Positions 5,514 to 55,932 of a DNA stretch of 64,000 nt are shown piece by piece. The notes below the pieces were generated by a model. The model saw only the letters and a list, made by a program, of their open reading frames with translations, was not told the DNA's origin and ran no database searches. The stretch's first letter is position 1. Each line of letters begins with the position of its first letter. The stretch is from Gekko japonicus (lineage: Eukaryota): assembly GCF_001447785.1 (NCBI RefSeq), contig NW_015172563.1:1-64000 (forward strand). Direction: 5' to 3'. Position numbers and translations under genes: made by a program.

Positions 5514-5690
5514 GAAGAAGAAGAAGAAGAAGAAGAAGAAGAAGAAGAAGAAGAGATTGGATTTATACCCCACCCTTCACTACCCAAAGGTGTCTCAGAG
5601 CAGCTTACAAACTCCTTTCCCTTCCCCTCCCCACAACAGACACCCTGTGAGGTAGGTGGGGCTGAGAGAACTCTTGACAGAAACTGCTCT
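5514..5690 (-). mobile_element. Squam3-like SINE 3' half with (GAA)n/(TTC)n tail
   Basis: GAA run at 5514-5553 followed by the reverse complement of the SINE body seen at 27502-27745. Confidence 0.8.
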
Positions 5691-6266
5691 TTTTCAAGAA
5701 TGGGAAGGAATGCGGGACCCCCTCTCCCAAGCTGAATCAGGTTCCTGCAGACTCTAAACAGAGTTCCCTGAAGCTGTTTTGGGGCTGCAGGGAAAATATG
5801 TAAGGTCCAGGGAACCCAGACCCTTTTCATTAGAAAATATCTTGTGTAGTTGGGCCCTTGGTTTCCAGGCCCAGAAAGAAGTTTTCTTCCTGTTCTCTAC
5901 CTGCTGGACTTACCACAGAGGGAAGAATTCCCCCTCTCAGGTGGATGGTTGTGCCAGCTCTCTCTGGGATGACATTTCCTTTGTGAACTGCCAAAGACCC
6001 TCCAACTGGTATGCAACATACTGCCCTGCTCTTCTCCTTGTCTGGATTTTTACCCATTGCCTAGCTGCCTGAATCATCTTCTCCAGCCCTAGCCTCTGCT
6101 GAATCCCAAGAATGGTAGCTATCCTACTCTTTTCTCTCCTTGCAGCTCATGGTGCTCTCTCCCTCCCTCCCTCCCTCTTCCTGAGTCCATTCTTGTTCCT
6201 TTCTCTTTCTTGTCTTGTGCATATGAACTACATTGCTCAAAATCTCTATGTTTGGTATCATCCTGT

Positions 6267-8084: not shown

Positions 8085-8547
8085 GAAAAATGAATTCTGA
8101 GTCACAAAAAAGACTGAGTTGCAAAAGGACTTCTGCTGTGGGCTTTGGTTTTAAAGATGCATACAACAGAATTGTGCGGAACGCCCCATAACCTGACAGA
8201 AGCCTTAGCGCCTACACAGACATTTTCTAATGATATGGAGATAACATTAGACTGAGATGTGACATCTATGTAGATTTCTCAGAAATGAACTCTGAGCAGG
8301 ACACTGTGACCTAGCAACTCCTTCTCATGTAGTCTTTCCAAAAACATAAGGATTTTAGAGCCCAGACTAAAATCATGTAAATTTTTCCATAGAAATTGTA
8401 TAGAAACAACATCAATACCAAAGCACTTAATGGGCAGGCATAAGTAAGAATAGTCCCTTCTACATATTGCTCTTGATAGGCCAGTAGTCAAAACAGTGGG
8501 TTTACTTTAGCCAAATTTAAGCATTTTAAGTCCCGTTACTTTCAGCT

Positions 8548-8894
8548 AGGGGCTGCGGTGGCTTATAAGATGCTGAGCTGCAGACCAGAAAGTCTGTAGT
8601 TTGGCAGTTCAAGACCCTAGTGCCATGTGACGGAGTGAGCTCCCATCTCTGGCCTCATCTCCTGCCAACCTAGCCGTTCGAAAGCAAGAAATTGCAAGTA
8701 GATAAATAGGTACCACTTCAGTGGGAAGGTAACAGTGTTCCATGTGCCTTGGCATTTAGTCATGCCAGCCACATGACCATGGAAATGTCTTCAGACAGCG
8801 CTGGCTCTTCAGCTTGGAAACAGAGATGAGCACTGCCCCCTAGAGTTGGATTTGACTGGCTTTCGAGCAAAGGAAACCTTTACTGTTACCTTAC
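8548..8894 (+). mobile_element. Full-length Sauria SINE
   Basis: tRNA-like head, ACCTTT-type tail, 12-bp TSD TTACTTTCAGCT at 8536-8547 and 8895-8906. Confidence 0.92.
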
Positions 8895-11198: not shown

Positions 11199-11775
11199 CA
11201 CAGATAGTAAATTACATTCCCAGCACAATCGTAAGGATCTCTTACCCAGGGCTTCTCCTTGCGCTTCTGAAACCTTTGGATCTTTTCCTTTTAGTGCTAA
11301 AATTACTTCTTCCTTAGAGTCAGCAGTGATGCTGACATACTAATTTTAGCACACCCAAAGATCTGTGCATGGCATACCATGGACATGGTTGTCTACTTTT
11401 TTATTTCAACAGAATTTAACACTTGTCCATGGAGGTCACTGGGGTACCTCATAACTTGCATTGTTGTTAGATCCATATCAGATTGGTTGTTACAATATCT
11501 TTCCAACCTTTGAGGATATATATAAATGAGAATTTAAGCTTTGGTTTTTATTTGACTTAACATAGCCAGTCAGATGAATTCAATTCCTAATTCCCACTTC
11601 CATTTATCCACTGGCTCCCAAATCAATAAAATATGCACATGCCATCTTACACAATTCCTAAAAATCACTTGAAAAACAGTCATTAAAACTCAGAAACTGC
11701 CAGACTTGATTCATATCAGCAATGCCATCTACTGATAGTTATTAACTTTATGACCCATTGACTCTTTAGCTACTG

Positions 11776-12472
11776 ATTTTTTTTAAACCCCTGGAGGGGT
11801 ATTTTTATTATTATTTTAAAATGAGACTACAGAACTACAAAGAAAAATATAGGGAGGGGAACTACATCTATGGATAAAGGAAAGATACCCACATTAACTA
11901 AAAACCCAACAGTGGGAGATCACATCCGTGTTAAACTAAATATTAATATTCAAAGTGTTAGTAAAACAATATACTTGTAGAGTTCTTGTTTTCACAGCTT
12001 CTGTGTTAGTAAGTTAGTAATTATGAGAGAACTTTCTGAGCATCTTCTTTACTTCAAAGGGCCATTTATCAGAGTCCTTCTGCCCATACTTGCAGTGTCC
12101 ATCTCTGTAACTTTCTCAGTTACATGCTCCACTTTCTTTTCCATTTCTGCCAGCTGGCACTGTTGTAAAGCGAAGTTTTGATTTAACAAGGTCAATTGCT
12201 GGTTAATACCATCGAATTGCTCCAGTCGAATTAGCTTGTGCCTGAAGGCCACACATCGGCAGGACTGTCAGAGCGGAGGGAAGCCTCAATTCTCCGGCAG
12301 CAAGCCGTCAAAGAGGCTAACCCTCAAAGCCCTCTGGCCTGGAGCCTTTTACAAAGGCTCCGTGGGGATGCCACTTGAGGTGGCACCCCTCCATTCCAAT
12401 GGTGTGCTAATCGTCTCCCCAAGGTCTGGGGAGAATGACCGCCATCGCCAATCCACAAACCAGATGTCCCTG
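11776..12472 (-). mobile_element. Internally deleted non-autonomous L1/HAL1-like element
   Basis: Colinear with the 5'UTR, a short ORF1 piece (EQFDGINQQLT...) and the 3'UTR of 45129-47165; poly(A); TSD TAGCTACTG at 11767-11775 and 12473-12481. Confidence 0.85.
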
Positions 12473-13775
12473 TAGCTACTGCTTATGTGGCTGGTTGAAG
12501 TCTGGAAACTGCACAGCTGCTGGAGAGGAGTAGTGGTTGCTAATTCTTGAGTGAGGTGTGCATAATGAAATTCATGAGTTGAAAATACAAATGGAAAAGG
12601 TTGGTTTTGTGTCATTATCATGATTATCCAGGATGGTAACACAGATCCAAGATTCTTTATTACAAAACCCCTTCATAGAACAATCTGGGTTGTTTTTGGT
12701 CTTTGGCTGCAGCTAGCTGGCTACAGCATGGGCTCATGTTTTTCTTTGATTCTACTGATTTCCTGAACAATGGTGTTTCCCCCTTCCACTCAGATCCTTG
12801 CATGGGAGGGTACAGAGTGCTTCCAGAGATTGCCCTTGGGGACAGTCTGCAGAGAGCTGCAGTTCTCTCCCTCCCTCCTTTGTTGGACCAGATACCTTTT
12901 GTTCTTTGTAAGTACTGTGGCTGGAAAAATAGAGACCTTGGGCTCCCTGTTCAGGGGCCTGTAGAATTCTATCACTTGGTCCAGTGCAATTTTGGTATCA
13001 TTTGGTTGAAAAATAGCCACTCCAGTCCCTCTGAAAGTCCACCATAGGGAATAATGGCAGACCAATGGAAAGGGATGTGAGGTGTGCAAAGGAAGCCACT
13101 TTCATTTTGTGATAGTAAACACAAGAAAGGATGGCAAATGCAGAGTTCTCAGTGGAAAGAAAATGTTATTGTCATTTCTCCTGCTAGGCTGCCACATGAC
13201 TCCCATTTCAGGAATCAGTAGAGAGAAGTGAAGCTGCTCAGAGAATCAACTACTTTGGTGCTCTGTAAACAGTTGTTGTTTAATCTAATTGAAAATTAGG
13301 AGGTCTCTAGATTACAGGGAGGACCGTGTTTTGTGCAAATTTGGTGCTATTATCTCTATAAACATCTGCCCCAGACCTTCATATACATTCTCCATTGAAA
13401 ATAATGGTCCTGAACTCCAGAAACACATGGATTTGAATCCCAAACCTGTAACATCCTACCTGAAAATAAGCAATCACAGAAAATCCCCCCCCCCTGAAGC
13501 CTGGATCTTAAATTACAGTGATTTTTTTTCTCGGCACCCCCACCTCATTCTCTAGCATCAACAGGTGGCACTGGCTCTCCTGGCAGAAAATAGCCCCTGA
13601 TAGGTGCTCAACCATAATGGCCATTGTGGCCAGTTCTTGTACTTAGCTGCTGAAGATTGTTTTTGAAGCAATAAACATCAAATAAAATTTTATAATCATT
13701 ATTAAAAGGGGCAGGCACTGGGAAGATGAGTTGCATTGCTAATAAAACACCCATGACACTTCTACAACCACATTC

Positions 13776-16153: not shown

Positions 16154-16419
16154 TAGGCCTGCCAAATCTCACCAAATCGTGGTGGGGGATCTGCATGTCT
16201 TTGCAGAATCCTTGCTGCGGGGACAGCGAGATGCATTGCACCACCGTCGCCAGGACATGACGCTATGCGTCACTCTGGCAATAGGGCTCTTTGGAGCCCC
16301 ATTGCCAGAGCGACACGTAGCATCAGATCCTGGCGACGGCGGGGGCAATGCATCTCGCTGTCCCTGTGGCAAGGATTCTGTGAAGACCTACGATCCCCCA
16401 CCACGACGTGGCAACCCTA
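16154..16419. mobile_element. Palindromic hAT MITE
   Basis: TIRs TAGGCCTGCCA/TGGCAACCCTA; TSD TCAGAGTA; nearly the whole element is an inverted repeat. Confidence 0.9.
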
Positions 16420-17835: not shown

Positions 17836-18126
17836 CAGGCTTCCCAAGTACTTACCGTGATTCAGCGGGGGACACAGATGTCTTTGCAGGATCATTCCTG
17901 CAGGGACAACAGACGCTCTGCACCATGCCGTCGCCAGGAAGCGATGCCGGGCGACGCTCTGGCAATGGGCCTGGAAACTCGATGGTACCATCGAGTTTTC
18001 AGTCCCATTGCCAGAGCGTCACCCAGCGTCACTTCCTGGAGACAGCATGGTGTGTTACAGGGAGGAATGGTCTGGCCGGGGAGCATGTTTCCCCCGCTGG
18101 ATCACGGTAAGTACTTGGGAACCCTA
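17836..18126. mobile_element. Palindromic hAT MITE
   Basis: Long terminal inverted arms; 8-bp TSD TTAACAGC at 17828-17835 and 18127-18134. Confidence 0.9.
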
Positions 18127-20024: not shown

Positions 20025-21915
20025 CTTTTTTTAAAAAAATATTTTTTTAATTATTTTCCACAAATATTTACATATTATCTTTTAATCATACATCTTGTAG
20101 TAATTTCTACCTGCTATTCCGGTGATTTTAGTCCTATATTCCCAGCCACGGGCACAAAGTCCGAATCTTGCTCTGAATGTCTCCTCTTCCTTCTGTTGGT
20201 ATCCATTCCAGGTAGGTCTTCCACTTCGTCCTGATTCCCGTAGTCTTATTTTCCCATGTGGACTTTCGTTCCAGCTTTTCGATTATGTCGGACTTTATGA
20301 GATCAAACAAATAATTATGCCAGATTTCTACTGTCCATTTATTTTTGTTCTTCCAGCCTAGAGCCATTACTGCTTTACTTGCTAGTATCATGGCTTTAAA
20401 CATAGCTTGGTTCTCTTTGCTAATTGCTGGGTTTCCTACTATACCCATTAGCATTAAATTAAAGTTGATGGGCAATGATACTTTACATGTCTTTTTTATA
20501 ATTTGTAGTATCTTTGTCCAGAAAACACTGACCTCTGGGCATTCCCACCACATATGGGAATACCATCCCTTCGATTGTTTACAATGCCAGCATCTAGGAC
20601 TCCTACCTGGGAACATGTTTGCTATTTGTGCTGGTGTTTTATACCATTTAGTAAGAAATTTATGCTCCATTTCATTAAATTTAATCACTTTGATTTCCTC
20701 GATTCCTTTCATTATTTTACTTGCCATGCTTTCTGTTATCTGACCTTCTTTGGCCCAAGTGTTTTGTAGATAAGATATTGACTTGTCTTCATTTGATATC
20801 ATTTCCTTGTAAATTTTCCCTGCTAGACCTTGTTTTGACTTTTGCATCTCTTTGTATAATGTTTCTATTGGTTCCTCTGACCAACTTTTCTCTTTCTCCT
20901 TAATCTTTTTAACCTTACTATACAAGCCATTTATTCTTAACCAGTGTTGGTTGCCCACCTCTTCTATTATCTCCTGTACCGGTTTTAGATTGCCTCCTCT
21001 GAACATGTCTCCCAGTCTATGATAACCTTTAGCTTTTAGCCATTCCCACCATTTGTTACCTGTTATTTCACTATTTATAGATTTTAATGGTGCCCATCTT
21101 GAAGTTTTTCTTAGCCATAGCTCTTGCCACTTACTCCACGCTTCTAGGGCTGCATATCTGGGACCTTTGGTTAGTTCGAGGTCTTTTTTTGTGACTTTAC
21201 GAAAATGCCCCCAGCAGCCAATGTTGTTGTTGATCTCATTTTCAAATCTAACCCATTTTTGCCCTTCACCTTCACCTATCTCTAATAGGGACTTTATTTG
21301 GAAGGCTTCATAATAGTTATTTAGCTCCGGGACTCCCCAACCTAGCTCCACTTTGGGACCATATATCAACCTCTTTTGGGTTCTGCACTTCTTACTACCA
21401 AATACCCATTCTCTAATCACTCTGTTCCATTGTTCTAACTTTTTACTGTGTGCTTCTAGTGGTATCGCCTGAAATAAGTATATTAATTTGGGTAGCCAGA
21501 ACATTTTAACACTCCTAATTCTAGTGGAGAGCCCTAGAGTTTTGTTTTTCCATTTTTTCATTTTGTTTTCTATTTTCTTCCATATTGTGTTGTAGTTACT
21601 TTCTGCAATTCTATCAGTCTTTTTGGTAACTCTATGCCTAAGTACTCATAGTATAATTCATTACAAAATAATCATAATATTATCAATCATATATGGCTTC
21701 AGGGGTCATAAATACATGTCATTTTGGTCTACAAACATCTGTTCTCAGAACCAAGAAGCAAGAAAATTTATCAAGATCTAAGCAGAACAATAACTTCATC
21801 CCAGTTATATCACAGGCCTGAAACCATCTGAGATTCAAGGGTGATAGAAACAGAAGCTGTACCACCCTTAAATATATGTTCACATATATCACATGTTCCT
21901 TCTTCACTCAGAATC
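20025..21915 (-). mobile_element. 5'-truncated L1 (ORF2 C-terminal half)
   Basis: 475-aa ORF 20134-21561 with KMFWLPKLIYLFQ and a CWHC-x8-H-x4-C knuckle; upstream YLGI motif; T-rich tail. Confidence 0.92.
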
Positions 21916-23277
21916 TTCCCCAGCTAAATAAAATAAAATAAATAACATAACATATAAATAAATAACATAACATATAAATAAATAACATAACATATTAGCT
22001 AAATACATAAGATAACATATTAGCTAAATAAATACATACAATAACAGCTAAATAAAATAACATATTAGAAGAAATCAGTGGTGACTAGAACATACCTCAC
22101 TGTGGGAGTTCAACCTTTGTTTGATATTGAAGAAATAGTAGAGAATTTTTATAAGTGCCTGTATCAAAAATCAGATATAATAAATAAGGAAATACAAGAG
22201 TATCAATATAAATGGGAAAAGGGTAAGTTTAATAAGGAGCAAATAGCAATATTAAATGATCCAATTACACCTTATGAGATAACAGAAGTAATACAAAATG
22301 GGGAAAAACAGAAAACTCCAGGCGTAGATGGTATCCTTACAGAGTTTTATCAAATATTTGAGGATCAGATACTAGACCCATTTAAAGAGCTAATACAAAA
22401 TATTCCTAAATCAAACAGAATTCTATTTTTCCATTTCGTTTTCTATTTTCTTCCATATTGTGTTGTAGTTACTTTCCGCAATTCTATCAGTCTTTTTTTG
22501 TAACTCTATGCCTAAGTACTCATAGTATAATTCATTACAAAATAATCATAATATTATCAATCATATATGGCTTCAGGGGTCATAAATACATGTCGTTTTG
22601 GTCTACAAACATCTGTTCTCAGAACCAAGAAGCAAGAAAATTTATCAAGATCTAAGCAGAACAATAACTTCATCCCAGTTATATCACAGGCCTGAAACCA
22701 TCTGAGATTCAGGGGTGATAGAAACAGAAGCTGTACCACCCTTAAATATATGTTCACATATATCACATGTTCCTTCTTCACTCAGAACCTTCCCCAGCTA
22801 AATAAAATAAAATAAATAACATAACATATAAATAAATAACATAACATATTAGCTAAATACATAAGATAACATATTAGCTAAATAAATACATACAATAACA
22901 GCTAAATAAAATAACATATTAGAAGAAATCAGTGGTGACTAGAACATACCTCACTGTGGGAGTTCAACCTTTGTTTGATATTGAAGAAATAGTAGAGAAT
23001 TTTTATAAGTGCCTGTATCAAAAATCAGATATAATAAATAAGGAAATACAAGAGTATCAATATAAATGGGAAAAGGGTAAGTTTAATAAGGAGCAAATAG
23101 CAATATTAAATGATCCAATTACACCTTATGAGATAACAGAAGTAATACAAAATGGGGAAAAACAGAAAACTCCAGGCGTAGATGGTATCCTTACAGAGTT
23201 TTATCAAATATTTGAGGATCAGATACTAGACCCATTTAAAGAGCTAATACAAAATATTCCTAAATCAAACAGAATTC
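21567..23277. repeat. Tandem duplication, ~855-bp unit x2
   Basis: Identical ORF pairs at 21719/22557 and 22078/22932; the unit spans the junction of two opposite L1s. Confidence 0.9.
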
Positions 23278-24614
23278 CCTCCTCATGGAACGAAGCTATA
23301 ATAACTCTGATCCATAAACCTAACTCAAAAGAAGAAGAAATAACAAATTATAGACCCATTTCCTTATTAAACACAGATTATAAATTATTTGCAAAAATAT
23401 TGGATAATAGATTGAGGAAGGTATTAATCCAAATAATACATAAAGATCAATCAGGATTTTTACCTAAAAGGAAAATACAAAATAATATTAGAAACATAAT
23501 TAATGTGTTAGAATATTATGAATTACATCCAGGGAAACCAATGATATTAACACTATTAGATGCGAAAAAAGCATTTGATAACATTAATTGGAGTTATATG
23601 TTAAAAACGTTTGTGATGTGGGAATGCGGGAACAATTTTCTTACAATGATAAAGGCTATCTACAATAGCCAAAATGCAAAAAGTTTAGTTAATGGTGAAC
23701 CCACTCAAAATATTCCCATCCAAAAAGGTACTAGACAGGGTTGCCCCCATCTCCCTTATTGTTTATCTTTACTATTGAGTCATTAGCTGAAAGGATAAGA
23801 AATAATGAATTGATAAAAGGATTGAAAGTAAGAGGTGAAACTTTTAAACTGCAAGCTTTTGCAGACGGTTTGATTGTAATATTAGAAGACCGAGAATACT
23901 TTTTAAAGTATCTATTAGAAGATATTCAGGAATTTGGGAACCTTTCAGGCTTTAGAATCAATGTTCAAAAGACTAAAATTATAGTCAAAAATTGTCCACA
24001 AAATATTATACAAAGAATGAAAGAAATATCAAAAATGGAGGTAGTGGAAAAAGCAAAATATTTAGGAATATGGATATCCAACAAATCATCGACGCTATAT
24101 GAAGACAACTATTTACAACTTTTAAAAGACATAAAAGGGGACTTGAAGCATTGGGACAAAGTACATCTCTCTTTACTGGGCAGAATAGCGACAGTTAAAT
24201 GATTATTTTGCCAAGATTCCTCTTCCTCGCACAGAATTTACCAATAGAAACATAATATAAAATTATCCTGGTGGGAAAAAAATGTCTTAAAAACAAGGTA
24301 TAATTAAGATTTTTAAAAAGGATTTTACAGTAGCTTAAATGAATTTGACAAAATCTGGTTATTTTCCAGCGATAAGCTTATTCAGAAACTTTATACCATA
24401 TTGATAGAGGACTTTTTACGAGAAGAAACTATTAAAACGTCAATGTTAGCTTGGATAAAACAGGTTGGGCATCCTATAGAAGCAGACCAATGGACTAAAA
24501 CATGGAAATCACTAACCTTTATGAGAGCAACCCCCTACAAGGAAAACATATATAAAATGTTCTATAGATGGCATTGGACTCCTGTCAAAGTAGCAAAGTG
24601 CTTCCCGAAGGCAT
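22932..24614 (+). mobile_element. L1 ORF2 (RT) pseudogene, frameshifted, running into a gap
   Basis: KTPGVDG, NYRPISLLNTDYK, LDAKKAFD, GTRQGCP, FADG (degenerate FADD), KYLGI motifs. Confidence 0.92.
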
Positions 24615-25159
24615 NNNNNNNNNNNNNNNNNNNNNNNNNNNNNNNNNNNNNNNNNNNNNNNNNNNNNNNNNNNNNNNNNNNNNNNNNNNNNNNNNNNNNN
24701 NNNNNNNNNNNNNNNNNNNNNNNNNNNNNNNNNNNNNNNNNNNNNNNNNNNNNNNNNNNNNNNNNNNNNNNNNNNNNNNNNNNNNNNNNNNNNNNNNNNN
24801 NNNNNNNNCCCTTTACCTTTCATTTGTGATATAGCCTTTGAACTAGCCTCGCCATTCAGCCACTCCTTGTTCATGTAGTTCCCTCATCTGCCTTCTCAGG
24901 ATGATCTGGTGACTTAGACTCTTGCCCCTCTCAGAATCAAGTATTTCAGCTGATGAACACTCCCCTGCCAACCTTTGAGCTGAGGTGATGTGACAAGTTC
25001 AGAAGAAATGGAAGGATGTCCTTGCCTCTCCTGTTTTGCCTGTAACTGTTACCATAAAGAGCTTTCACCACATATGATTATTATTCTTCCTGCCCTTCCA
25101 GGATTGGCATCAATAACCATCTAACATTGGTAGAGAATTTTCTCCCATCTGAAGGAGTG

Positions 25160-32490: not shown

Positions 32491-33468
32491 TCTAAAATCA
32501 GTCATTATAGGGGTAATCTGCTTGTGTGCTGTTGTTTAGCCTGACCTGGAAGGGAACCTGGCAGAAAGTCAATGGAAAGAAAGACCGGGAAACTGAAGCC
32601 TATTTACTAACAATAGTTGGTTAATGCATTCAGGTGATTTCCTTCTAGGGGTCAAGAAGAAAGGAAGAATTTCCATTACTATCTGTGTGTCTGTTGTTGC
32701 AAGCATGTAGTCTTAAGTGGTTGTTGTTTTGTAGAGTTCTCTGTGTACCCTTCCCTTTAGAAATAAAGATCTTTACTTAGAAATAAAATGCCTCCAGTGC
32801 ACAAAGATCCTTTGCAACCTCTGAATATCTAACTATTTTTACCCATTTTCCCAACAGACACGACCCGTACATCAACCCTCCTGCCCTCTTGCTCTGTAGG
32901 TACCCTCATCACCTCTCCTCTGCGTCTACCTTGAAGATCCACCAACGAGCATTTGGATAAAGGAGGAGGAGGCCACTGGGGCAGAGGACTGTGGAGGACA
33001 GCAGCTGCCTTGGTGTCCTGGCTTGGCTTGGGATTTGCTGGCACTCGGGTAGGAGACAGTGGCCAACAGGAGGCCCTTTTTTCCTTCTTACCACTGCCAG
33101 TGGCAGTCAGTGCAGTGGGTTGGTTGGTCAGGAGGGTGGCAGCACCAGGATGTTGCCAGCTGCTTTCCTGGTAAGGCTCCTGCATGCCTTCTGCTGGCCT
33201 GATGCTATCTCTGCGGGGGGGATGGCAACAGTGGAGTTTCTGCCTGGGAAAAGGCTCAGGATAAAGCTCTGCCAGGACAACCAGGAAGGGTTCAGGGCAG
33301 GGCAGATTTGAGAGGGGGCATCACACCCAGGGGCCCACGGTAGTTACGGGCCTTAAGGAAGTTGATGTTCATAGAAGACTCAAGGGAAGACCACACCGCC
33401 TGTACTGGAGTTCACTGCAGTGCATGCCTCAACCCAGGAGACAGGCGTCTGTGGTGATTGTGTAGGCA

Positions 33469-34230
33469 TTGAGTTGTACGCATGGATTAGGTGGCTGTAT
33501 TAAAAAGACATGCACCTTTTGCTGTAAGAGTAACTTGCCAGCACATGCGTTTGGGATGCACATGTTCCAGATTGAGGCTATGTCACCAGCAGACAGATTG
33601 GGTCTATCTGGCCACTACATACAGTGGACCAACTATTGGTGGTCCAGTGCCTTTAGGAGCTACATTAGATAATGCAGTGTGCTTTGTTTCTTACAGGTGC
33701 AGGCATATCACACAGCCTGGTTAAGGTTCTCATCCTGGGCCAGTCCATTATTTTCTTGGTGAAGAGAAAGGCGGATGTCAGCAGCAGAGGGACTCAGTTG
33801 GGCCTTCCCTCTCATGTGAATTTTCAATGGTGCAGCAAGAGGGAGGATGTTGTAGGGTCAGCTCTCTCCACCAGCTATTGAGAGAAGGCAGTCATCCCAA
33901 AACTCTAGTGTTACTTAGGTGAGAATAATTTAGTGCAGTTCAAGGGTGCTGTGCTGGAGTGATTAGGGGCCTCAGAAGAATTCAGGCAGACTATCCTAGA
34001 GTGTTGCTGGTTTGGTTGGAGGTCCTCCACTGTTAGGTCTGGAGGGGATGCCTGTAAACTTCTGATCACTGAGAAGGCTCAGTATAATGCCGATCTGGCC
34101 ATTAGAAAGACAGTGTGGGATGGGAGGGGGCTTTTATACCCTGGCCTTCAATCCGCCATGTTATGCCTTGGCCTATGTGTTCTTTAGTTGGCCCTCTGGA
34201 GTAACCAATTGGCCACTGTGTGAATGGACC
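33469..34230 (+). mobile_element. Ngaro-type YR retrotransposon 3' relic (YR C-terminus plus SGNH hydrolase-like ORF)
   Basis: FGMHMFQIEA...WWSSAFRSYIR resembles HSFRIGAA...GRW.S..F..YIR; then ILGQSII, TQLGL and LGENNL. Confidence 0.7.
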
Positions 34231-35990
34231 ACTGTTTTAATCAAGCAGGTCTCTTCTTATATTCTTATGAGAGAACCTAAGACTAGCCTAATACTAGATT
34301 AATTAGTGGATTAATACTGGATTAGTATTAATCAAGACCCCTTAAACGATTATTCAAGGTATGCTTAGATATCAAGAATTCTGTTATATTAACATTCCTA
34401 TCAACAAATGCATGGGCACATTAGCATTTTCTACTAAGACGTTCTTAGTTCAGCTTCATTCATCATGCCTCCTTTCCATCCAGACACCATCCCTCTCTTT
34501 TTATATTTGGAAAAGTTCTCAAGAACTTCCTCCTTTCCTACCTGTGGCCAAACGAGGTGCATTTATTTTAAGCTTAAAACTCTGACCCCATAGGGTTGCC
34601 AGCCCCCTGCTGGTGGTTCTGAAAAAATAAAATAAAAAAGTGGTAATTGGCTGAGGATGTGGTCACTACCAGGAAAACCCAGAAGTGACATCACACCTCT
34701 CTAGGAATTGGCTGGAATTTACCACAAAGCTGGCCAGTTTTTGTAGTAGTGGGCCTTCAGAGTCCGGCCAAGCCATTACTGCTGGTCCCCAAAGCCTCAG
34801 TTTTGTGCAGAACTCTTACACACTGGATAAAATGGTACTGATTTTCAAAAAGGAACAATTCTAGGAATGTTTCCTTAATATGGATGTAGTATATCAGGAT
34901 TCAGAACGTAATCTAGGCCAAGCCTTAAATAATAGTCTTAGGGTTGAACACTTCAGTGAATAGGATTCACTGACTCTGATAAAAGATCCCTGAGGAGGAT
35001 TCTTTTGTATTTTAATATAATAAAGGAACAATAGCTAGACTTCTTGAATAGCCTATGGAATAGAGCATGGCATCTATTTAAAAGTGCAGAGTTTCTCTAT
35101 ACAATCATTTAGGTTACTGAGTGAAAGTGATGGTGCTAAGAGATTGAAATAGCTGGTGGAATTTATGAGAGTGAAATGTAATGACCGAAAGAAGAATTTA
35201 AACAGTAATCTGAGATCAATACCATGAGGATGCAGGAGGGCAGGGGAAAGAGAGAGATGAAATGTGCAGAAAATGTCACTAATCTCTTCAATTTGCAGGT
35301 GGATTTTTCCTNNNNNNNNNNNNNNNNNNNNNNNNNNNNNNNNNNNNNNNNNNNNNNNNNNNNNNNNNNNNNNNNNNNNNNNNNNNNNNNNNNNNNNNNN
35401 NNNNNNNNNNNNNNNNNNNNNNNNNNNNNNNNNNNNNNNNNNNNNNNNNNNNNNNNNNNNNNNNNNNNNNNNNNNNNNNNNNNNNNNNNNNNNNNNNNNN
35501 NNNNNNNNNNNNNNNNNNNNNNNNNNNNNNNNNNNNNNNNNNNNNNNNNNNNNNNNNNNNNNNNNNNNNNNNNNNNNNNNNNNNNNNNNNNNNNNNNNNN
35601 NNNNNNNNNNNNNNNNNNNNNNNNNNNNNNNNNNNNNNNNNNNNNNNNNNNNNNNNNNNNNNNNNNNNNNNNNNNNNNNNNNNNNNNNNNNNNNNNNNNN
35701 NNNNNNNNNNNNNNNNNNNNNNNNNNNNNNNNNNNNNNNNNNNNNNNNNNNNNNNNNNNNNNNNNNNNNNNNNNNNNNNNNNNNNNNNNNNNNNNNNNNN
35801 NNNNNNNNNNNNNNNNNNNNNNNNNNNNNNNNNNNNNNNNNNNNNNNNNNNNNNNNNNNNNNNNNNNNNNNNNNNNNNNNNNNNNNNNNNNNNNNNNNNN
35901 NNNNNNNNNNNNNNNNNNNNNNNNNNNNNNNNNNNNNNNNNNNNNNNNNNNNNNNNNNNNNNNNNNNNNNNNNNNNNNNNNNNNNNNNNN

Positions 35991-38060
35991 AAACTGAAGC
36001 CTATTTACTAACAATCATTGGTTAATGCATTCAGGTGATTTCCTTCTAGGGGTCAAGAAGAAAGGAAGAATTTCCATTACTATCTGTGTGTCTGTTGTTG
36101 CAAGCATGTAGTCTTAAGTGGTTGTTGTTTTGTAGATTTCCCTGTGTACCCTTCCCTTTAGAACTAAAGATTTTTACATAGAAAGAAAATGCCTCCTCTC
36201 CAGTGAAGGAAAGATCCATTGCAATCTCTGAGTATTTAGCTATTTTTACCGATTTCCCAACAAGCATGACTTCTGATTGGCCATTGGAGAGCTGATTGGC
36301 TGAGCAGATTAAAATTATGATGATCTGGTAGCAATAGACACTGCAGTGCTGGCTTTAGAGGCCACTGGGGCAGAGGGCTGTGAAGGACAGCAGCTGCCTT
36401 GGTGTCCTGGCTTGGCTTAGGATTTGCTGGCACTCCGGTAGGAGACAGTGGCCAACAGGAGGCCCTTTCTTCCTTCTTACCACTGCCAGTGGCAGTCAGT
36501 GCAGTGGGTTGGTTGGGCAGGAGGGTGGCAGCACCAGGATGTTGCCAGCTGCTTTCCTGGTAAGGCTCCTGCATGCCTTCTGCTGGCCTGATGCTATCTC
36601 TGCGGGGGGGGGGGGGGGGGGGGGGGATGGCAACAGTGGAGTTTCTGCCTGGGAAAAGGCTCAGGATAAAGCTCTGCCAGGACAACCAGGAAGGGTTCAG
36701 GGCAGGGCAGATTTGAGAGGGGGCATCACACCCAGGGGCCCACGGTAGCTACGGGCCTTAAGGGATGTTCATAGAAGACTCAAGGGAAGACTACACCGCC
36801 TGTAGTGGAGTTCACTGCAGTGCACGCCTCAACCCAGAAGACAGGTGTCTGTGGTGATTGTGTAGGCATTGAGTTGTACGCATGGATTAGGTGGCTGTAT
36901 TAAAAAGACATGCACCTTTTGCTGTAAGAGTAACTTGCCAGCACATGCGTTTGGGATGCACATGTTCCAGATTGAGGCTATGTCACCAGCAGACAGATTG
37001 GGCCTATCTGGCCACTACATACAGTGGACCAACTATTGGTGGTCCAGTGCCTTTAGGGGCTACATTAGATAATGCAGTGTGCTTTGTTTCTTACAGGTGC
37101 AGGCATATCACACAGCCTGGTTAAGGTTCTCATCCTGGGCCAGTCCATTATTTTCTTGGTGAAGAGAAAGGCGGATGTCAGCAGCAGAGGGACTCAGTTG
37201 GGCCTTCCCTCTCATGTGAATTTTCAATGGTGCAGCAAGAGGGAGGATGTTGTAGGGTCAGCTCTCTCCACCAGCTATTGAGAGAAGGCAGTCATCCCAA
37301 AACTCTAGTGTTACTTAGGTGAGAATAATTTAGTGCAGTTCAAGGGTGCTGTGCTGGAGTGATTAGGGGCCTCAGAAGAATTCAGGCAGACTATCCTAGA
37401 GTGTTGCTGGTTTGGTTGGAGGTCCTCCACTGTTAGGTCTGGAGGGGATGCCTGTAAACTTCTGATCACTGAGAAGGCTCAGTATAATGCCAATCTGGCC
37501 ATTAGAAAGACAGTGTGGGATGGGAGGGGGCTTTTATACCCTGGCCTTCAATCCGCCATGATATGCCTTGGCCTATGTGTTCTTTAGTTGGCCCTCTGGA
37601 GTACCAATTGGCCACTGTGTGAATGGACCACTTATATTCTTATGAGAGAACCTAAGACTAGCCTAATACTAGATTAATTAGTGGATTAATACTGGATTAG
37701 TATTAATCAAGACCTCTTAAACGATTATTCAAGGTATGCTTAGATATCAAGAATTCTGTTATATTAACATTCCTATCAACAAATGCATGGATATATTAGC
37801 CTTTTCTACTAAGACGTTCTTAGTTCAGCTTCATTCATCATGCCTCCTTTCCATCCAGACACCATCCCTCTCTTTTTATATTTGGAAAAGTTCTCAAGAA
37901 CTTCCTCCTTTCCTACCTGTGGCCAAACGAGGTGCATTTATTTTAAGCTTAAAACTCTGACCCCATAGGGTTGCCAGCCCCCTGCTGGTGGTTCTGAAAA
38001 AATAAAATAAAAAAGTGGTAATTGGCTGAGGATGTGGTCACTACCAGGAAAACCCAGAAG
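35991..38060. repeat. ~2.1 kb near-identical duplicate of 32590-34685, starting at an N gap
   Basis: Identical or near-identical ORF pairs 33469/36869, 33672/37072 and 34361/37736. Confidence 0.9.
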
Positions 38061-39683
38061 TCCATTATTTCCATGGATATGCTCCGCATGCTGTGTCCAA
38101 AAGGGGGCTCACCACTTCAGAAGTCGTGGGGTTTCCGGTTAAGGGACTTCAATAAGAACCCCATGGCGGTGCTGGGCTGGGGCAAGTTCCAGGTACAATT
38201 CCGAGACTTTAACGGCACCCTTGACCTGTTGGTGGTGGATAGGCCTCTCTCCAGCCTGCTGGGACTCTCTTGGTTCGAGGCCCTGGGACTCTCTTTGAAT
38301 GAAATCCATTGGGTCGGGTCATGGGATTTTGGCGTGGTGTGCGCAAAATTCCCCCGTGTTTTCGATGGCAACCTGGGACGCTTCTCTGGGCCCCCCATCT
38401 CCCTGGATCTCGACCCAGTGGTGCGGCCAATTTGCGTCAAGGCCCGGCTGCCGCCACTAGCAATGAAGCCTAAAATCAAGGCCGAGCTAGATCACTTAGT
38501 GGAACAAGGGGTTCTGGAACCGGTTACGTTGGAACGATGGGAGACCCCCATAGTCACCCCGGTGAAGCCCAATGGGGACGTGCACATTTGTGCGGATTAT
38601 AAATGCACGCTAAACAAGGCTCTGCAGGCACATGCTTATCCAGTGCCAATGGTGAGCCATGTGTTGGCAGCTTTGGCGGGGGCCTGGGTTTTTGGCAAGT
38701 TGGACTTGGCACAGGCGTATCAACAACTGCCGGTTGATGCCGCCACGGCCGAAGCCCAAACGATCACAACACACAGGGGAGCATTCAAGGTTCACAGCCT
38801 TCAGTTTGGAGTCTCGGTTGCATCAGGGATTTTTCAATCTTTTATGGATTCTCTCCTGAAAGGCATCCCTGGGGTTCAGCTGTTTCTAGACGATCATGAC
38901 CGCCACGGAATTCCTGACACGCTGGCGTTCACGTCAGCGAAGTTCCAGGAATTCACGAGTTACTACGGTATCCGCCACGTCCGGGCTGCCCCGTTCCACC
39001 CTGCCACCAACGGCCAGGCCGAGCGCTTGGTCAGAACCACAAAGGACGCTCTCCACCGCTTGGACTCCCCGGACTGGGATTATAAACTGGCGGCTTTCCT
39101 TTTTTGCCAGCGAACGACGCCCCACACCACGACGGGGCGCAGTCCAGCAGAACTACTTCTGGGCCGCCGCCTGGCAACCCAGTTGGATCGCCTGCACCCC
39201 GATCAGGCATCGGCAGAGGCACCAGGCATGGAGACGCACGAGGCAGCCAAAGGTTTCTTCCCGGAAGATCCCGTGTATGCACGGAACTACACCCGGGGGC
39301 CCGCCTGGATCCTAGCATGAGTCATACGAGTTAAGGGCCCCAGATCATAGGAGGTCTCTTGTGAAGACGGACAAGTTCTATACCGGCACATCAACCAGCT
39401 ACGCCACCAGACAATGCCATTGGACCCGAGGACTCAGACATGGCTGAGGCTCTGGAGACCTCACCCCAGGCCCAACTCCCGGTGGCTGACCCCCGGCCTC
39501 TACCCTTGGTTGAACCCGAGACACTTCTTCGGGAGGCACCGGGGACGCCAGCTCACCTCCGAGGGCTTCAGGGGTGGAAGCTGCAGCAGTCCCTGAACCT
39601 CGCCACTCTACCCGCACCAGGAAGTTACCTGCCCACCTGAAGGACTTCGTCTGTGGGTGCATTGTGGACCAAGGCGGGAGGGG
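38061..39683 (+). mobile_element. Gypsy pol, 5'-truncated and internally deleted (protease end, partial RT, partial integrase)
   Basis: ORF 38022-39320: LLGLSWF, ICADYK, KLDLAQAYQQL, FLDD joined to HGIP, PFHPATNGQAER, SPAELLLGR; PPT AAGGCGGGAGGGG. Confidence 0.92.
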
Positions 39684-44768: not shown

Positions 44769-45665
44769 TTCAAAACACACATCCCAAGGTGGAAAATCTA
44801 ATTGCTGCCCCTTTCAAAAGAAATAGCAATTGTGCCTATTGGGATCATCTAGTGTTGTGCGTTCATTCTGTACACGTGATTGTCATGGAGTCTGAAATGT
44901 AATGACTGAAAAGGGCCTTGTACAAAGGTAATTCAAGTGTACACTATACATAGTATAGTAACTGTATAGTCACTGTAACAAGTACAGGAATATAGAATCT
45001 CTTCAAGTATAATCCCCCCCCCTCTTTTTCCAGAATAAATTTATGCCAGTGGGGCTTTCATATGACCAGGCATCGGGCAGCCAGTTGATATATTACATCA
45101 GCTGTATGGTGGAGAAAGTACCTCCCTTGGACTTCCGGTCTATGAAGCAGCGATGGTGGACGCTCTCCCCGAGCCGCAGGAGAGCGATCTGCACACCAGC
45201 AGTCTGGAGGGGTGCCGCCTCAAGTGACACCCCCATGGAGCCTTTGCAATAGGCTCTAGGCCAGGGGGCTTTTGAGGGGTGGCCTCTTTGATGGCGTAAT
45301 GCCGGAGAATTGAGGATTCCCTCCGCCCTGACGGTCCAGCCGCTGTGTGGCCCTCAGGCACTAGCTGGTTTGACTGGGACAAGTGCCGGAGATGGAGCGG
45401 AATGGCGATTAATGAGTGAGGTCAGAGAAACTGACCGACAATGAGTGTGAGTTCAAAATAAATCGGATTACTTTAAAAGCAAATCCCCCCCCTTCGCTGA
45501 CAAAAGCGGGCGCAAAGAGGGATGCCTCTTGTGCGATTGAACTGATAAGCGATACGAAAGGGGAGAGGGGAGGAAATACGAGTGTGTTTTGAGAGACTTA
45601 CTTGATTTTTGTCATCGTGGGGGAGTTTTTCAAGTAATGAAGAAGCATTAGAAACTGTAAACAAA

Positions 45666-46487
45666 ATGGAGAAAATGACGGCCCAGCAGAGAAAGCTGAA
45701 AACGAAACTGCCAGGCAGTAAGAGCCCAAAACCGGAAGAGGGAGCAGACATCATTAAACTGCTAGTGGACATGCTCAAGCCGGTGATGGAACAACTCGAT
45801 GGTATTAACCAGCAATTGACCGTGATGGATAAGAACTTTGCATTTCAACAGCTCCAGCTGAATAAAATGGAGAAAAAAGTAGAGCAGGCAAATGAGAAAA
45901 TTAAAGAGATAGACACCACAAGCAAGAAATTGAAGAAAAGAATGGGAGAAGCGGAAACGATGCAGAACATCCAAGAAAACCGTTTGCTGCAGTTACAGAT
46001 GGAAAAAGCTAATATGATTCTCAGGTTCCAGGGAGTTCTTGAAGCAAAGCGGGAGGACCTGAGAAAGGTGCTTAGCGAGATCATCGCTCCAGTAATAGAC
46101 TTAACAGCGGATGAGCTTGTAAAAGAAATGGAACTAGCCTACAGGGCATATTCCAATTATATTTTAAAAAATAGCCTGCCTGGAGAAATAGTGGTCAGAT
46201 TCTCAAGAAGACAAACCAGAGATGCCATCTTAAAAGTGACTTCGGCAGCTCCACTGAAAATGGGAAATGTAATCATCAAAACTTTAAAAGACATTCCATT
46301 TGAAATTCGAAAAAAGAGGAAAAATTATAAGGATTCAATTTCTTTCCTTCAAACTAATGGAATATTGTACAGATGGGCGGTCCTGGAGGGTGTCATCTTT
46401 AAGATCAACGATAAAAGAGAGAAGATAGACTCCACCTTCAAAGCCAAAGAGTTTTTGCGGCATCAGCTGGGAACAGGAAGAGTCTAA
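45666..46487 (+). CDS. L1 ORF1p-like protein (coiled coil, RRM, CTD)
   Basis: Uninterrupted frame; heptad-rich N-terminus, LRFQGVLE, PGEIVVRF...RDAIL, DIPFEIRKKR. Confidence 0.85.
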   Translation: MEKMTAQQRKLKTKLPGSKSPKPEEGADIIKLLVDMLKPVMEQLDGINQQLTVMDKNFAFQQLQLNKMEKKVEQANEKIKEIDTTSKKLKKRMGEAETMQNIQENRLLQLQMEKANMILRFQGVLEAKREDLRKVLSEIIAPVIDLTADELVKEMELAYRAYSNYILKNSLPGEIVVRFSRRQTRDAILKVTSAAPLKMGNVIIKTLKDIPFEIRKKRKNYKDSISFLQTNGILYRWAVLEGVIFKINDKREKIDSTFKAKEFLRHQLGTGRV

Positions 46488-46639
46488 GGAGGAAGAAATG
46501 AAATCTAGTGACTCTGCCACCTCTGGAACGGAAGAGGACCCTGCTGTAGANNNNNNNNNNNNNNNNNNNNNNNNNNNNNNNNNNNNNNNNNNNNNNNNNN
46601 NNNNNNNNNNNNNNNNNNNNNNNNNNNNNNNNNNNNNNN

Positions 46640-46983
46640 AGGTAAAGGTAAAGGTTCCCTTGCTCGAAAGCTAGTCGAATCCGACTCTAGGGTTGCGGTG
46701 CTCATCTCCATTTCAAAGCCGAAGAGCCAGCGCTGTCCAAAGACATTTCCGTGGTCATGTGGCCGGCATGACTAAACACCAAGGTGCACGGAACGCTGTT
46801 ACCTTCCCACCGAAGTGGTCCCTATTTATCTACTTGCAATTTCTTGCTTTCGAACTGCTAGGTTGGCAGGAGCTGGAACTAGAGATGGGAGCTCACTCCG
46901 TCATGCGGCACTGGAACTGCTGAACTACTGACCTTCCACAGCCTGCAGTTCAGCGTCTTAACCACTTGAGCCACCGCAGCTCC
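46640..46983 (-). mobile_element. Full-length Sauria SINE inserted in the 3'UTR of the HAL1-like element
   Basis: Reverse complement of 8548-8894; (GGTAAA)n tail. Confidence 0.92.
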
Positions 46984-47967
46984 TAACACTTTTAGTACTA
47001 ACACTTATATTAACAGGGATAAGGTCTCCTCCTCTTGGGGTTTTAGCATAGTGTGGTTATCTTTCCTTTATCCCTAGTTGTAGTTCCCTTCCTAATATTT
47101 TCTTTGTAGTTCTGTAGTGTATTGCAAAAGAAAAAATATCCCTTTGGGGGTTTAAAAAAAAAAGAGAGAAAGTACCTCCCTTTATCTTGCCAAACAAAGA
47201 AGAGGGCCACTAGTGGGAAGAGGAAATAGGTCAAGAACCTGATATACTAATAAAAATGAACTCAATCTTTGAGAAGCGGTGTAAATCAAATAACATAAGT
47301 TAATTTTTTCTTGTCCTGAATGCAAGTTACCCAATGGAGTTTGTTGTGCTGCTATGCTTGGGTGGCTTTCATTACTTATTATTATTACACGCTAATTTTC
47401 ATGATTGTATCTTAGAGGCAAGCAACAGAATTACAAGCACTGAAGAGGTTGTTAATGAAATACAATGGCTGGCCTTCCAAACATATATCCACAATAGTTC
47501 AGCATTTTAGGACTTTGCTCAGTTAATTAAACTAATTGCATTGCTCAGTGATATTTAGCTGGAGACCTGAATGTGGACACTGCAACAGAGACAGTAAAAA
47601 AGCACTGCAACCAAACAAATATTTGTGCTGTGTTAACTTCTGCTTCCTCTGGTAGAGTTTTGCTAAAGGCTCTCCTGGCAGGGTTTTGGTATATTTACTT
47701 TGACAGCTTTCTAAAGTCAAGCTATCTTGGGCTGTTTTATATTGTATGACTGTCAATAAATAAACTACTTAAAAATATAATGAAGTATTGCAATTGTCAT
47801 TCTAGAGCCAGGAAGTAAACTGCCAAATATATCAGGGCAGTATGGGAGTTATTTGCCTCCCTTGTCATAAAAAAACAATTATTGCTATCATTGTAATATT
47901 TTGTGTGTGTGACTCAGATGTTTTATCACCAAGCCGTTTGACATTTACTGGTTTCCTAGTTCAGTTA

Positions 47968-52122: not shown

Positions 52123-53961
52123 TCAGACATTTGCTAGAATCTCCTCCATTAAAACAATCAGTACATAGACCCTTAACAGAATTTGAACAGTTACTAAAAA
52201 AACACAGACAGACATATGTAAGGAATGGTATCAAAGATTTACAGAATTTTGCATAAAACAGAAGATAACTTGATGCTGAACTATCAAAAACAATGGAATT
52301 TAGACTGCCAAGGTGGATGATGACTGGAAGCAAATCTGGAACTCTCAAAGCTTCTCATCAAAATTTTCCTCAAATTTCAATTTGTCAAAATGGTCATGAG
52401 GTGGTATCTACCCCCAATTATATTACATTGTATAACTAAAACTAAAAGCCCATATGGTGGTCATGCCCATATATAAAACAATTTTGGATTCAAATAGCAT
52501 ATCAGATAAATCTTATTACAGGTACTATGCTACCATTATTGCCAGAAGTTATGCTATTAAGAAATTGGAATAATCCTTTAATAAACAAACATAAATCTGA
52601 GCTAATTAATATTTTACTTTCCATTGCTTGAATAACTGCAGCAAAATGGATTTACAAGAATTTACCCACTATAGACTCTTGGCACAATAGGAGCTGGGAC
52701 CACTTTATTATTTGGGAAGTAGCACACAACCCCTCTGACTCTTCAGCAGACAAGTATGAGGAAAAGACTATTGCAATTTGGTTTTCAACGCTTAGCTATA
52801 TGTCAGAGAGGTATTATTTAAAAAAATCCACTCTACCAAAATAGGTTTTTCTGATTATCTTATTATAACCTCCTGTATTGATTAGAATTAAAATTAGTGT
52901 GTTTCGTTTTAGTTTGATAAGTTTAAGTTTTGAAAATAAATGTTTTGTGATGTATAAACAAAATAAAATTGTAAAAGGTGTATGGTTGTACGAAAGTACA
53001 ACTGTTTCTTTTTTTGTATGCATTAATAAAAATAAAGATTTTTTTAAAAAAGTAATGGTGTACAACAGTTACTAAAAAAACACAGACAGACATATGTAAG
53101 GAATGGTATCAAAGATTTACAGAATTTTGCATAAAACAGAAGATAACTTGATGCTGAACTATCCAAAACAATGGAATTTAGACTGCCAAGGTGGATGATG
53201 ACTGGAAGCAAATCTGGAACTCTCAAAGCTTCTCATCAAAATTTTCCTCAATTTGTCAAAATGGTCATGAGGTGGTATCTACCCCCAATTAGATTACATC
53301 GTATAACTAAAGCTAAAAGCCCATATTGTAGAAAAAATAACAGCCCAAAAGTGGATTTTATATATTGCTGGTGGACATGCCCACATATAAAACAATTTTG
53401 GATTCAAATAGCACATCAGATAAATCTTTACAGGTACTATGCTACCATTATTGCCAGAAGTTATGCTATTAAGAAATTGGAATAATCCTTTAATAAACAA
53501 ACATAAATCTGAGCTAATTAATATTTTACTTTCCATTGCTTGAATAATTGCAACAAAATGGATTGACAAGAATTTACCCACTATAGACTCTTGGCACAAT
53601 AGGAGCTGGGACCACTTTATTATGTGGAAAGTAGCACACAACCCCTCTGACTCTTCAGCAGACAAGTATGAGGAAAAGACGATTGCAATTTGGTTTTCAA
53701 CGCTTAGCTATATGTCAGAGAGGTATTATTTAAAAAAATCCACTCTACCAAAATAGGTTTTTCTGATTATCTTATTATAACCTCCTGTATTGATTAGAAT
53801 TAAAATTAGTGTGTTTCGTTTTAGTTTGATAAGTTTAAGTTTTGAAAATAAATGTTTTGTGATGTATAAACAAAATAAAATTGTAAAAGGTGTATGGTTG
53901 TACGAAAGTACAACTGTTTCTTTTTTTGTATGCATTAATAAAAATAAAGATTTTTTAAAAA
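52123..53961 (+). mobile_element. Two tandem 5'-truncated L1 3' ends
   Basis: KMVMRWYLPP...YCWWTCP.IKQFW; AAGTAATGGTGTAC at 52109, 53050 and 53962. Confidence 0.88.
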
Positions 53962-55932
53962 AAGTAATGGTGTACATTCTAACTACATTATGACTTTTGC
54001 AGTTTTCTGTTTCTCAACTGTAGATGTAACAGCTAGTACCAAACTGCTTAACTACGGACTAATTGGCTAACTCAGAAACTACAAGCTGATAAAACGACAA
54101 TGTAATTGCTGCTAAATATTTTCAATTTAGAGTATATTTTAAATACTCTAAATTAAATTCTCTAAATACATTTTCACTGACCATACATTTCAAACAACAT
54201 TCCACTATTCCCTCACCTTTCCTTGACTGGAAAGCTACAATTGCCTATTGCAGAAGAGGGAAAATAACTCAGCAAAGACAGGACCCTGTGCATGTTTACT
54301 TAGAAGTAAATCCTGTTAAGTTCAATGGGACTTTCATCCAATTAATCATGCAATGTTTACAGCCTTCCAATCTCAGAGCAATAAGCCCCACAGGACTCAC
54401 AAATTAGTGTGAATATGACTGTGCCGTTATAACTTGAATGCTTGCACGTTTAGGTGTGTGCAGGACTACTGCCTGATCCTAAGCATATGTATTCAGAAGC
54501 ATATCTAATTTCTGTTCAGTGGAGCTTACTCTCAAGTAAACAAGCATAAGATTGCAGAATTAGGAATGTAAATTTCACTGTATGTTTAGGAGAAGGAGAC
54601 GTTAGTAGCCTGTGGGGTACTAGGTGCGGATTATCATAGAAGAGAAAACTGAAGGCTTCTACAGGAGCATGCAAGCAAACCCCTTTCCTTATTTTCTGCC
54701 AAAGGAACCAGGTCCAATTTGTGCTACTGAATTTCTTTACAGTACTGGCCTTTGTGTTACTGAATTTCTATTATCAGCTTTTGAACCTGACTGAAAAAAA
54801 GATCTGCGTTTCTTCTGCCCTCAACTCACATAAAACTTCACAAGTTGACTTACAGTTTCTTCCTTCCATTCCTTTTTAATTAATTCTGAAATTGTGTTGC
54901 ATTTTAGATTAACATTTTGATTTAGGCCTAGTGAGGCAACAGACTAGCAAACACCATTCCCTTGGTTCTGAGAGCCTGGAGAGTTCTGTGGTTGTCCTGG
55001 GTCTCTGCACTTCAATGCAACTCCTTTTCTTCTCCCCTTATTCCAGCAGGATTTGTCCGACTTCTTTCTGGGTGTTACCTGCTACAACCAACTAATCTTG
55101 AAGAGTATCTCCTGCCAGAAGGATTAGTACTTCTAGCACTCTTTATTGCATTGTTCTTTAAAGGCTCTGTCTGTTACCTCAAAATGCTAGATTTATCCAA
55201 AAAGGCTGTCTCCTGTTTATTAGGGGAATTATTGAAGGGGACAAAATGGCTTTGCGATACGGAGGTAACTAGCAGGAATCTTCACCTATGTTTTACCGGG
55301 GGGGGGGGTCCCCTTAGGAGAACTCTCAAATAACCAGTCCAAAGGTAAAATAGAGACTGATTTTATTAGGGAGAAAATAAAAGTACTAACATACAATAAG
55401 CATGCAAGAAGATACATACATACAAGATCAATTAAGATATAAAGGGATTAGCAGGAAATATAGGGGGGTGTTGGGGTGATAGATACCTGTCCCATAGAGC
55501 AGAAATCTATGGAGAGAAGATGTGAGGCGGACCAGCATCTCACAGAAGGACCCAAGCAGTATGCAGGTGCATTGTCACTAGGCATCCAGGCAAGATACAC
55601 AGTAATGGAGCTAAGGCTGCCTAGTTAGAGGAAAAAATGGGACCTAAGGGCATGCGAACATGACTGCCCATGAAATAAAGAACTGACAGGATTAACTAAA
55701 AGGTAAGACAATGAGATTGGGAACGCTGAATAGGGTTTCCAGGTATAGACAAAGAAGAACAGCAGATGTTCTTAGAAGGGGTTTTGAATGTAAATTACAG
55801 TTTAGGCTGGAACTCAGATTGCTTCCTCCGGTGATTCAGTGGCTAATGGATTGCTAATTAAACTAATCAAAAAGACACATTGCTGCTTGGCAACCCTCCA
55901 TTTGTGTACAGTGGGAAAGAGGGAAGCAGTTA

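Follow-up and report, generated by a model that had tools for sequence, protein, structure and literature searches.

HAL1 elements of placental mammals and marsupials are L1-derived, non-autonomous retrotransposons that encode ORF1p only and that have several independent origins (PMC5753468, PMC3627910, in excerpt). The HAL1 descriptions found in the literature, as far as the retrieved excerpts extend, come from mammals; the listed results of literature searches on HAL1 and ORF1-only L1s in reptiles and non-mammals included no squamate HAL1, and PMC5203782 does not mention HAL1. In lizards, autonomous clade-1 L1s have an ORF1–ORF2 spacer of 0 to 110 bp, and their ORF2 needs 3645 to 3813 nt (PMC5381506 and its table 2, in excerpt). 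Here we describe an insertion, element A, at 45129 to 47165 on the forward strand of a 64-kb window (the whole stretch of DNA that was analyzed). Element A is probably a squamate example of the HAL1 kind, and its family may already be deposited in Repbase or Dfam. In our judgement, which we hold with some reservation, it is best read as one fairly recent insertion of an ORF1-only, non-autonomous derivative (HAL1-like) of a squamate clade-1 L1, mobilized in trans.

Element A comprises 2037 bp inside a perfect 17-bp target-site duplication, the 5′ and 3′ copies of which (45112 to 45128 and 47166 to 47182, both +) match exactly. This direct repeat has no further occurrence anywhere in the window and, as a control, when 30-nt windows were paired at random, 0 of 2868 pairs had 12 nt or more in common. 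The 5′ UTR (45129 to 45665, +; 537 bp) opens with a terminus of the lizard clade-1 L1 type, which fits the published form (PMC5381506, in excerpt) with a 13-nt instead of an 8-nt spacer. A fuzzy scan of the window for this terminus produced three matches: element A, a shorter relative that we call element B, and one site within an unrelated ORF2 fragment. The conserved terminus is present in both A and B, with a spacer longer than the consensus in each. The CpG observed/expected ratio of the element A 5′ UTR is 0.70 versus 0.18 to 0.21 in the flanks, and this region is the presumed internal Pol II promoter. At the other end, a T-rich 3′ UTR (46986 to 47153, +; 41% T) leads into a tail (47154 to 47165, +) of A10 and then GA; a canonical AATAAA is absent near the 3′ end of element A, whereas element B has one. 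The L1 5′ UTR, 3′ end, A tail and target-site duplication are all retained in element A. A 5-bp hairpin (47138 to 47151) lies just before the tail and also at the matching end of element B; the loops differ, there is one single-sided change, and two sequences are too small a sample to call the hairpin functional. Because the hairpin carries no two-sided change and the folding energies of the A and B 3′ UTRs are ordinary (z of 0.17 and 0.32, respectively), we do not claim a structural 3′-end signal.

Element A is interrupted by an antisense SINE (46640 to 46985, −), of which 346 bp can be read up to an assembly gap, with its (ACCTTT)n tail lying against the gap. Sauria/Squam1 SINEs are about 360 bp long and carry an (ACCTTT)n 3′ tail (excerpts of PMC13295347 and PMC10058329), and the name given to the nested copy rests on this agreement in tail and length rather than on alignment to the published consensus. 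Without the SINE, element A measures ~1.69 kb. The nested SINE is identical at 182 of 187 positions to a copy at 2491 to 2686 and is therefore young. Together with the clade-1 5′ end, this SINE assigns the host to the squamates. That copy belongs to a Sauria-type SINE at 2436 to 2686 in two oppositely oriented pieces, 96 to 97% identical to the nested SINE; an older copy at 8547 to 8891 (+) is 87% identical to it and has a flanking duplication of ~12 bp. Other repeats in the window include a 432-codon frame at 38022 to 39320 (+) with a reverse-transcriptase match (E = 3e-7) and a weak integrase match, which we assign from these matches to a decayed LTR-retrotransposon pol, and imperfect palindromes of 230 to 290 bp at 16177 to 16406 and 17837 to 18125 that have a core in common and may be MITE-like.

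The frame at 45666 to 46487 (+) encodes 273 aa from the first ATG. An earlier note on this DNA had called an open ORF1 of ~273 aa, as well as the perfect 17-bp duplication, the L1-type 5′ end, the nested Sauria SINE, the short 3′ UTR with poly(A) and a size of ~1.7 kb without the SINE, and all of these features were borne out. Searches with the single sequence recovered little: Pfam gave weak coiled-coil matches only, a word-index protein search had no match, and ORF1p was not retrieved from the PDB. With the ORF1 alignment as query, the word-index search returned two proteins, one match being a Thamnophis gene model. In an Atlas feature search, Transposase_22-bearing chordate clusters ranked first (0.95; family on 29% of members). 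A full phmmer scan with ORF1 gave 294 matches at E ≤ 0.001, the best of which was P0001 (49%, 305 aa). Transposase_22 (Pfam) was matched by 19 of the 84 aligned rows of the ORF1 family alignment, and a profile of 84 rows, built from the element A ORF plus 83 of the 150 phmmer matches listed, matched human ORF1p at an E value of 2e-16. The predicted structure (pLDDT 90) contains a long helix, an RRM and a CTD; Foldseek with this model placed ORF1p at all of ranks 1 to 11, and in the structural matches element A ORF1 is 16 to 22% identical to human ORF1p. Profile and predicted fold thus identify the 273-aa frame as an L1 ORF1p, with a coiled coil at residues ~26 to 115, an RRM at ~118 to 208 and a CTD at ~212 to 268. 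In a tree of the query and 104 of the 150 listed matches, made by a quick method and saying nothing on ORF2 linkage, the element A ORF pairs with P0001 (SH-aLRT 96) on ordinary branch lengths. A scan of bacterial and archaeal genomes found no relatives, and Rfam had 0 matches in the window.

The ORF1 frame takes in the coiled coil, the RRM and the CTD and stops 9 residues past the last of these. Among the 109 homologs whose alignment reached the end of the CTD, the tail beyond it is at least 25 aa long in 86 (median 53) and 12 aa or shorter in 10, and about a quarter of its first 30 residues are acidic. In element A, an open acidic frame (38% Asp/Glu), shifted relative to ORF1, runs from 46462 to 46550 (+) and remains open to the edge of the assembly gap; when the window was examined in all six frames, a comparable open frame occurred at one other place, a Glu-run simple repeat near 5514. 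The shifted tail adds ~10 bits on the ORF1 family profile with composition correction off and has no similarity to the P0001 tail beyond composition (p = 0.39). This frame is probably the original ORF1 tail, and the apparent switch near 46469 to 46471 would be either a genuine mutation or a mistake of the assembly beside the gap. If the acidic tail continues in the shifted frame into the gap, as it seems to, the true ORF1 end would lie within it. The description of ORF1 as intact in the earlier note therefore holds for the open core and probably does not extend to the 3′ end, where a 9-residue tail and a probable frame switch were found.

The gap itself (46551 to 46639, 89 N) begins 63 bases after the ORF1 stop and hides the probable ORF1 end, the 3′ UTR junction and the end of the SINE tail with its expected duplication. 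It also covers the position at which ORF2 starts in autonomous clade-1 L1s. The absence of ORF2 rests on the gap estimate and on both copies, A and B, keeping both ends without ORF2. Searches of the readable parts of A and B with eight ORF2 pieces gave no match better than E = 0.01 among the matches listed, in agreement with the earlier view that no ORF2 is visible in element A outside the gap. Three of the 150 listed ORF1 matches are gene models in which ORF2-like sequence follows ORF1, with one further borderline case. Should ORF2 be hidden in the gap, element A is an ordinary L1. Such an assembly artefact, in which the repetitive ORF2 of a full-length L1 of ~5.5 kb collapsed into an under-sized gap, would suit a gap that begins before the probable ORF1 end in an element whose kin have ORF2 directly behind ORF1. 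It would require ~3.7 kb under 89 N, a ~40-fold under-call (89 versus at least 3700), and neither flank of the gap shows an ORF2 start or end. The five gaps in the window are of unequal size (72, 194, 679, 89 and 212), which suggests that these are length estimates from the scaffolder. Microsatellite tails of SINEs are a usual cause of short assembly gaps, and the 89-N gap adjoins the (ACCTTT)n tail of the nested SINE, which accounts for a short gap here. In addition, the 537-bp 5′ UTR is shorter than in the Anolis clade-1 autonomous families (792 to 1465 bp; PMC5381506, in excerpt).

The assembly of the window has irregularities of its own. At the gap at 24615 to 24808 (194 N), an L1 ORF2 breaks off ~155 codons short of its end; its continuation did not turn up to the right of the gap, which closes on an ACCTTT-like tail. 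Either this gap is under-called or its L1 is 3′-truncated. Near-identical (93 to 97%) duplications are found at 21548 to 22423 and 22421 to 23277, 52186 to 53064 and 53064 to 53976, 32969 to 34686 and 36358 to 38061, and 1313 to 1822 and 5701 to 6194. Two of the four are head to tail, and all are possibly haplotype or gap-filling artefacts that call for caution about the assembly. Near-identical tandem duplications are typical of a draft assembly, and the 194-N gap is seemingly too short for its hidden content, both of which speak for a collapsed ORF2. Under-calls of hundreds of bases are thus possible in this window, and there is no sign of kilobase errors. Weighing these points, we judge a collapsed ORF2 distinctly improbable and consider it very likely that ORF2 is absent at the element A locus.

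The window supplies two copies with the element A 3′ UTR, A and B, and both are 5′-complete and free of ORF2 sequence. The window holds no 5′-truncated, ORF2-bearing copy with this 3′ UTR and no partner L1 that shares the 3′ UTR or 3′ end. L1 ORF2 fragments without ORF1 are found at 20134 to 21645 (−), 22923 to 24614 (+) and about 52200 to 53960 (+), none of which shares the element A 3′ UTR. Element B (11779 to 12469, −) is a 0.7-kb element with the clade-1 5′ end, a 3′ UTR like that of A, AATAAA and an A tail, and it is flanked by 15-bp target-site duplication copies (5′ copy at 12470 to 12484, 3′ copy at 11764 to 11778, both −) that are identical at 13 of 15 positions. It matches A in three 79 to 80% blocks only (45129 to 45377, 45787 to 45922 and 46983 to 47161) and has no counterpart of 45378 to 45786, a stretch of 409 nt that contains the ATG. 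At its first junction B shows a 3-nt microhomology, and no GT-AG splice dinucleotides are present there in the sequence of A. What is left of ORF1 in B is 45 codons, with no ATG and no ORF2. We propose that B is a relative of greater age in which the reduction went further and took ORF1 as well.

The middle of B, 127 nt at 12088 to 11962, has no accepted placement in A. Candidate placements at the RRM start (p ~0.02 to 0.03) and in the CTD (2 of 60 shuffles as good) were rejected as competing weak placements that exclude each other. An ORF2 C-terminus (best p of 0.01 to 0.03 among many tests) and the ORF1 tail (not significant) were likewise rejected. No match to this middle at the 79% level was seen in readable A, and equally low scores were seen in 0 of 200 simulated pieces at 21% divergence, in 2% at 30% and in 19% at 35%. 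These data are compatible with, and stop short of demonstrating, a counterpart under the gap of A, which would then be ~120 to 140 nt long.

The structure of B also bears on how the gap had been sized. The earlier note took B for a gap-free relative, counted about 110 nt in it from a post-ORF1 motif to the post-SINE 3′ UTR, and regarded this as close to the 89-N gap size. B proved instead to be an internally deleted copy that has lost the 409 nt with the ATG and most of ORF1, and the motif is equalled in 17% of shuffles over 45923 to 46550 (2.3% when the search is confined to the 63 post-stop nt). Because B carries several deletions and the motif falls short of significance, gap sizing from this relative is weak, and the deletions of B's own make it no witness for the ORF1-to-3′ UTR junction of A; the proposed size is nevertheless consistent with the elimination estimate.

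The internal deletions in B, with the 3-nt microhomology at its first junction, are also what would be expected if both copies were one-off products of an autonomous clade-1 L1, A having lost ORF2 as a single copy and B being a separate accident, with no ORF1-only lineage. ORF2 may in that case have been lost by a template jump at insertion, by later deletion or by deletion at SINE insertion, and the SINE indeed sits at the hidden junction, with its duplication within the gap. Moreover, the internal structures of A and B, the two copies that make up our sample of the family, differ, and a common breakpoint or shared ORF2-less junction is not among their demonstrated features. Against this stand the 5′-complete and ORF2-free state of both of the two copies that the 64 kb contain, the lack in the window of any 5′-truncated ORF2-bearing copy with their 3′ UTR, and the at least two deletions that B needs, which we consider a better fit to stepwise shrinking of a mobile lineage. 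We therefore regard separate accidents as unlikely.

In a neutral-decay simulation, a 268-codon frame stayed open in 22% of cases when divergence was 1.5%, in 6% when it was 3% and in 0.6% when it was 5%. That the corresponding frame of A is still open indicates that the element is young, and, taken with the perfect duplication, the open frame suggests that decay since insertion amounts to no more than about 3%. It follows that much of the distance between A and B arose in their source lineages. The two copies differ by 21%, with a dN/dS of 0.45 over 43 codons (p = 0.09, two copies). The comparison of ORF1 dN/dS among copies proposed in the earlier note yields, from this one pair, a hint that the source lineages of A and B split at a time when ORF1 still coded for protein, whether or not they then carried ORF2. 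CpG decay is equal in the two copies (4 in A and 4 in B) and by itself dates neither. Tentatively, and with more doubt than conviction, one may go further and see in A and B a long-lived ORF1-only lineage from a squamate clade-1 L1, with ORF1 under selection, that gave rise to a family of 0.7-kb, ORF-less elements (B) whose 5′ end is a Pol II one; a two-step reduction from L1 to half-L1 to a SINE-sized element is part of this same joint reading and is offered just as tentatively.

The open ORF1 core and its well-folding predicted model would also be expected of an ORF1-only retrocopy of an L1 transcript that had been spliced or had undergone premature polyadenylation (SpIRE-like), or of a domesticated ORF1 gene like mammalian L1TD1, and such routes have been described for mammalian L1 (PMC4161310, in excerpt). 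However, the first junction of B lacks GT-AG in the sequence of A, the 3′ end resembles lizard L1 3′ UTRs in being rich in T, A and B end at a common place, and the perfect duplication, tail and probable frame switch indicate a selfish insertion of recent date and not a conserved gene. We consider an origin of this sort highly improbable. Of the earlier note's interpretation, the L1 identity of ORF1, the L1-type ends, the target-site duplication and the absence of any visible ORF2 are supported, and its HAL1-like reading remains the most likely one; its gap argument is weak, and the ORF1 end is probably shifted. On the HAL1-like reading, and following established L1 biology and HAL1 descriptions (PMC5753468, PMC3627910, PMC5786205, in excerpt), a source copy would have been transcribed from the internal 5′ promoter into a polyadenylated RNA of ~1.3 to 1.5 kb. 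Its own ORF1p would have been made and have coated the source RNA in cis, and ORF2p, with its endonuclease and reverse transcriptase, would have been borrowed in trans from an autonomous L1. Target-primed reverse transcription at the A tail would then have produced the 17-bp duplication. Later, a Bov-B-mobilized Sauria SINE would have inserted antisense near the 3′ end of A, and the ORF1 tail would have gained its frame switch, whether as a mutation or as an assembly error at the gap.

If this reading is true, loss of ORF2 with retention of ORF1 would be a recurrent strategy across amniotes, and element A would provide a recent system for testing whether cis-made ORF1p is needed in trans-mobilization. 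Lizard ORF1p is reported to be mostly without the trimer motif (PMC5381506, in excerpt), and one could then ask how it assembles with a partner L1. Like HAL1, element A is L1-derived, encodes ORF1p and has no ORF2 in its readable sequence. It differs from HAL1 in its squamate host and in its ORF1 and 5′ end, which are of lizard clade-1 L1 type, and so would represent an origin independent of mammalian HAL1. With the autonomous clade-1 L1s of Anolis (Boissinot and Sookdeo 2016, PMC5381506, in excerpt) it shares the 5′ terminus motif, ORF1 architecture, T-rich 3′ UTR and A tail; it differs from them in size (~1.7 kb versus 6.2 to 6.7 kb), in 5′ UTR length (537 versus 792 to 1465 bp) and in having no visible ORF2 and no AATAAA. 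HeT-A (Jockey clade) and Ag-Sponge (CR1 clade) are likewise ORF1-only, non-autonomous LINEs with their own ORF1p and a borrowed reverse transcriptase (PMC5786205, in excerpt), but belong to other LINE clades and to insect hosts. Element B, in turn, resembles the bipartite ORF-less LINE derivatives or SIDEs (RIME, NARTc, Bov-A, the Vingi and R2 derivatives, and Persaeus) in keeping both LINE ends, with the coding region mostly deleted and microhomology at a junction, and differs from them in being of the L1 clade and a single copy in the window. In the excerpts obtained, a 2018 survey gives RTE, Ingi, Vingi and R2 as the only sources of such derivatives, and a 2019 paper adds CR1. Were B a multi-copy family, ORF-less, internally deleted bipartite LINEs would extend to the L1 clade, which is not listed among those sources.
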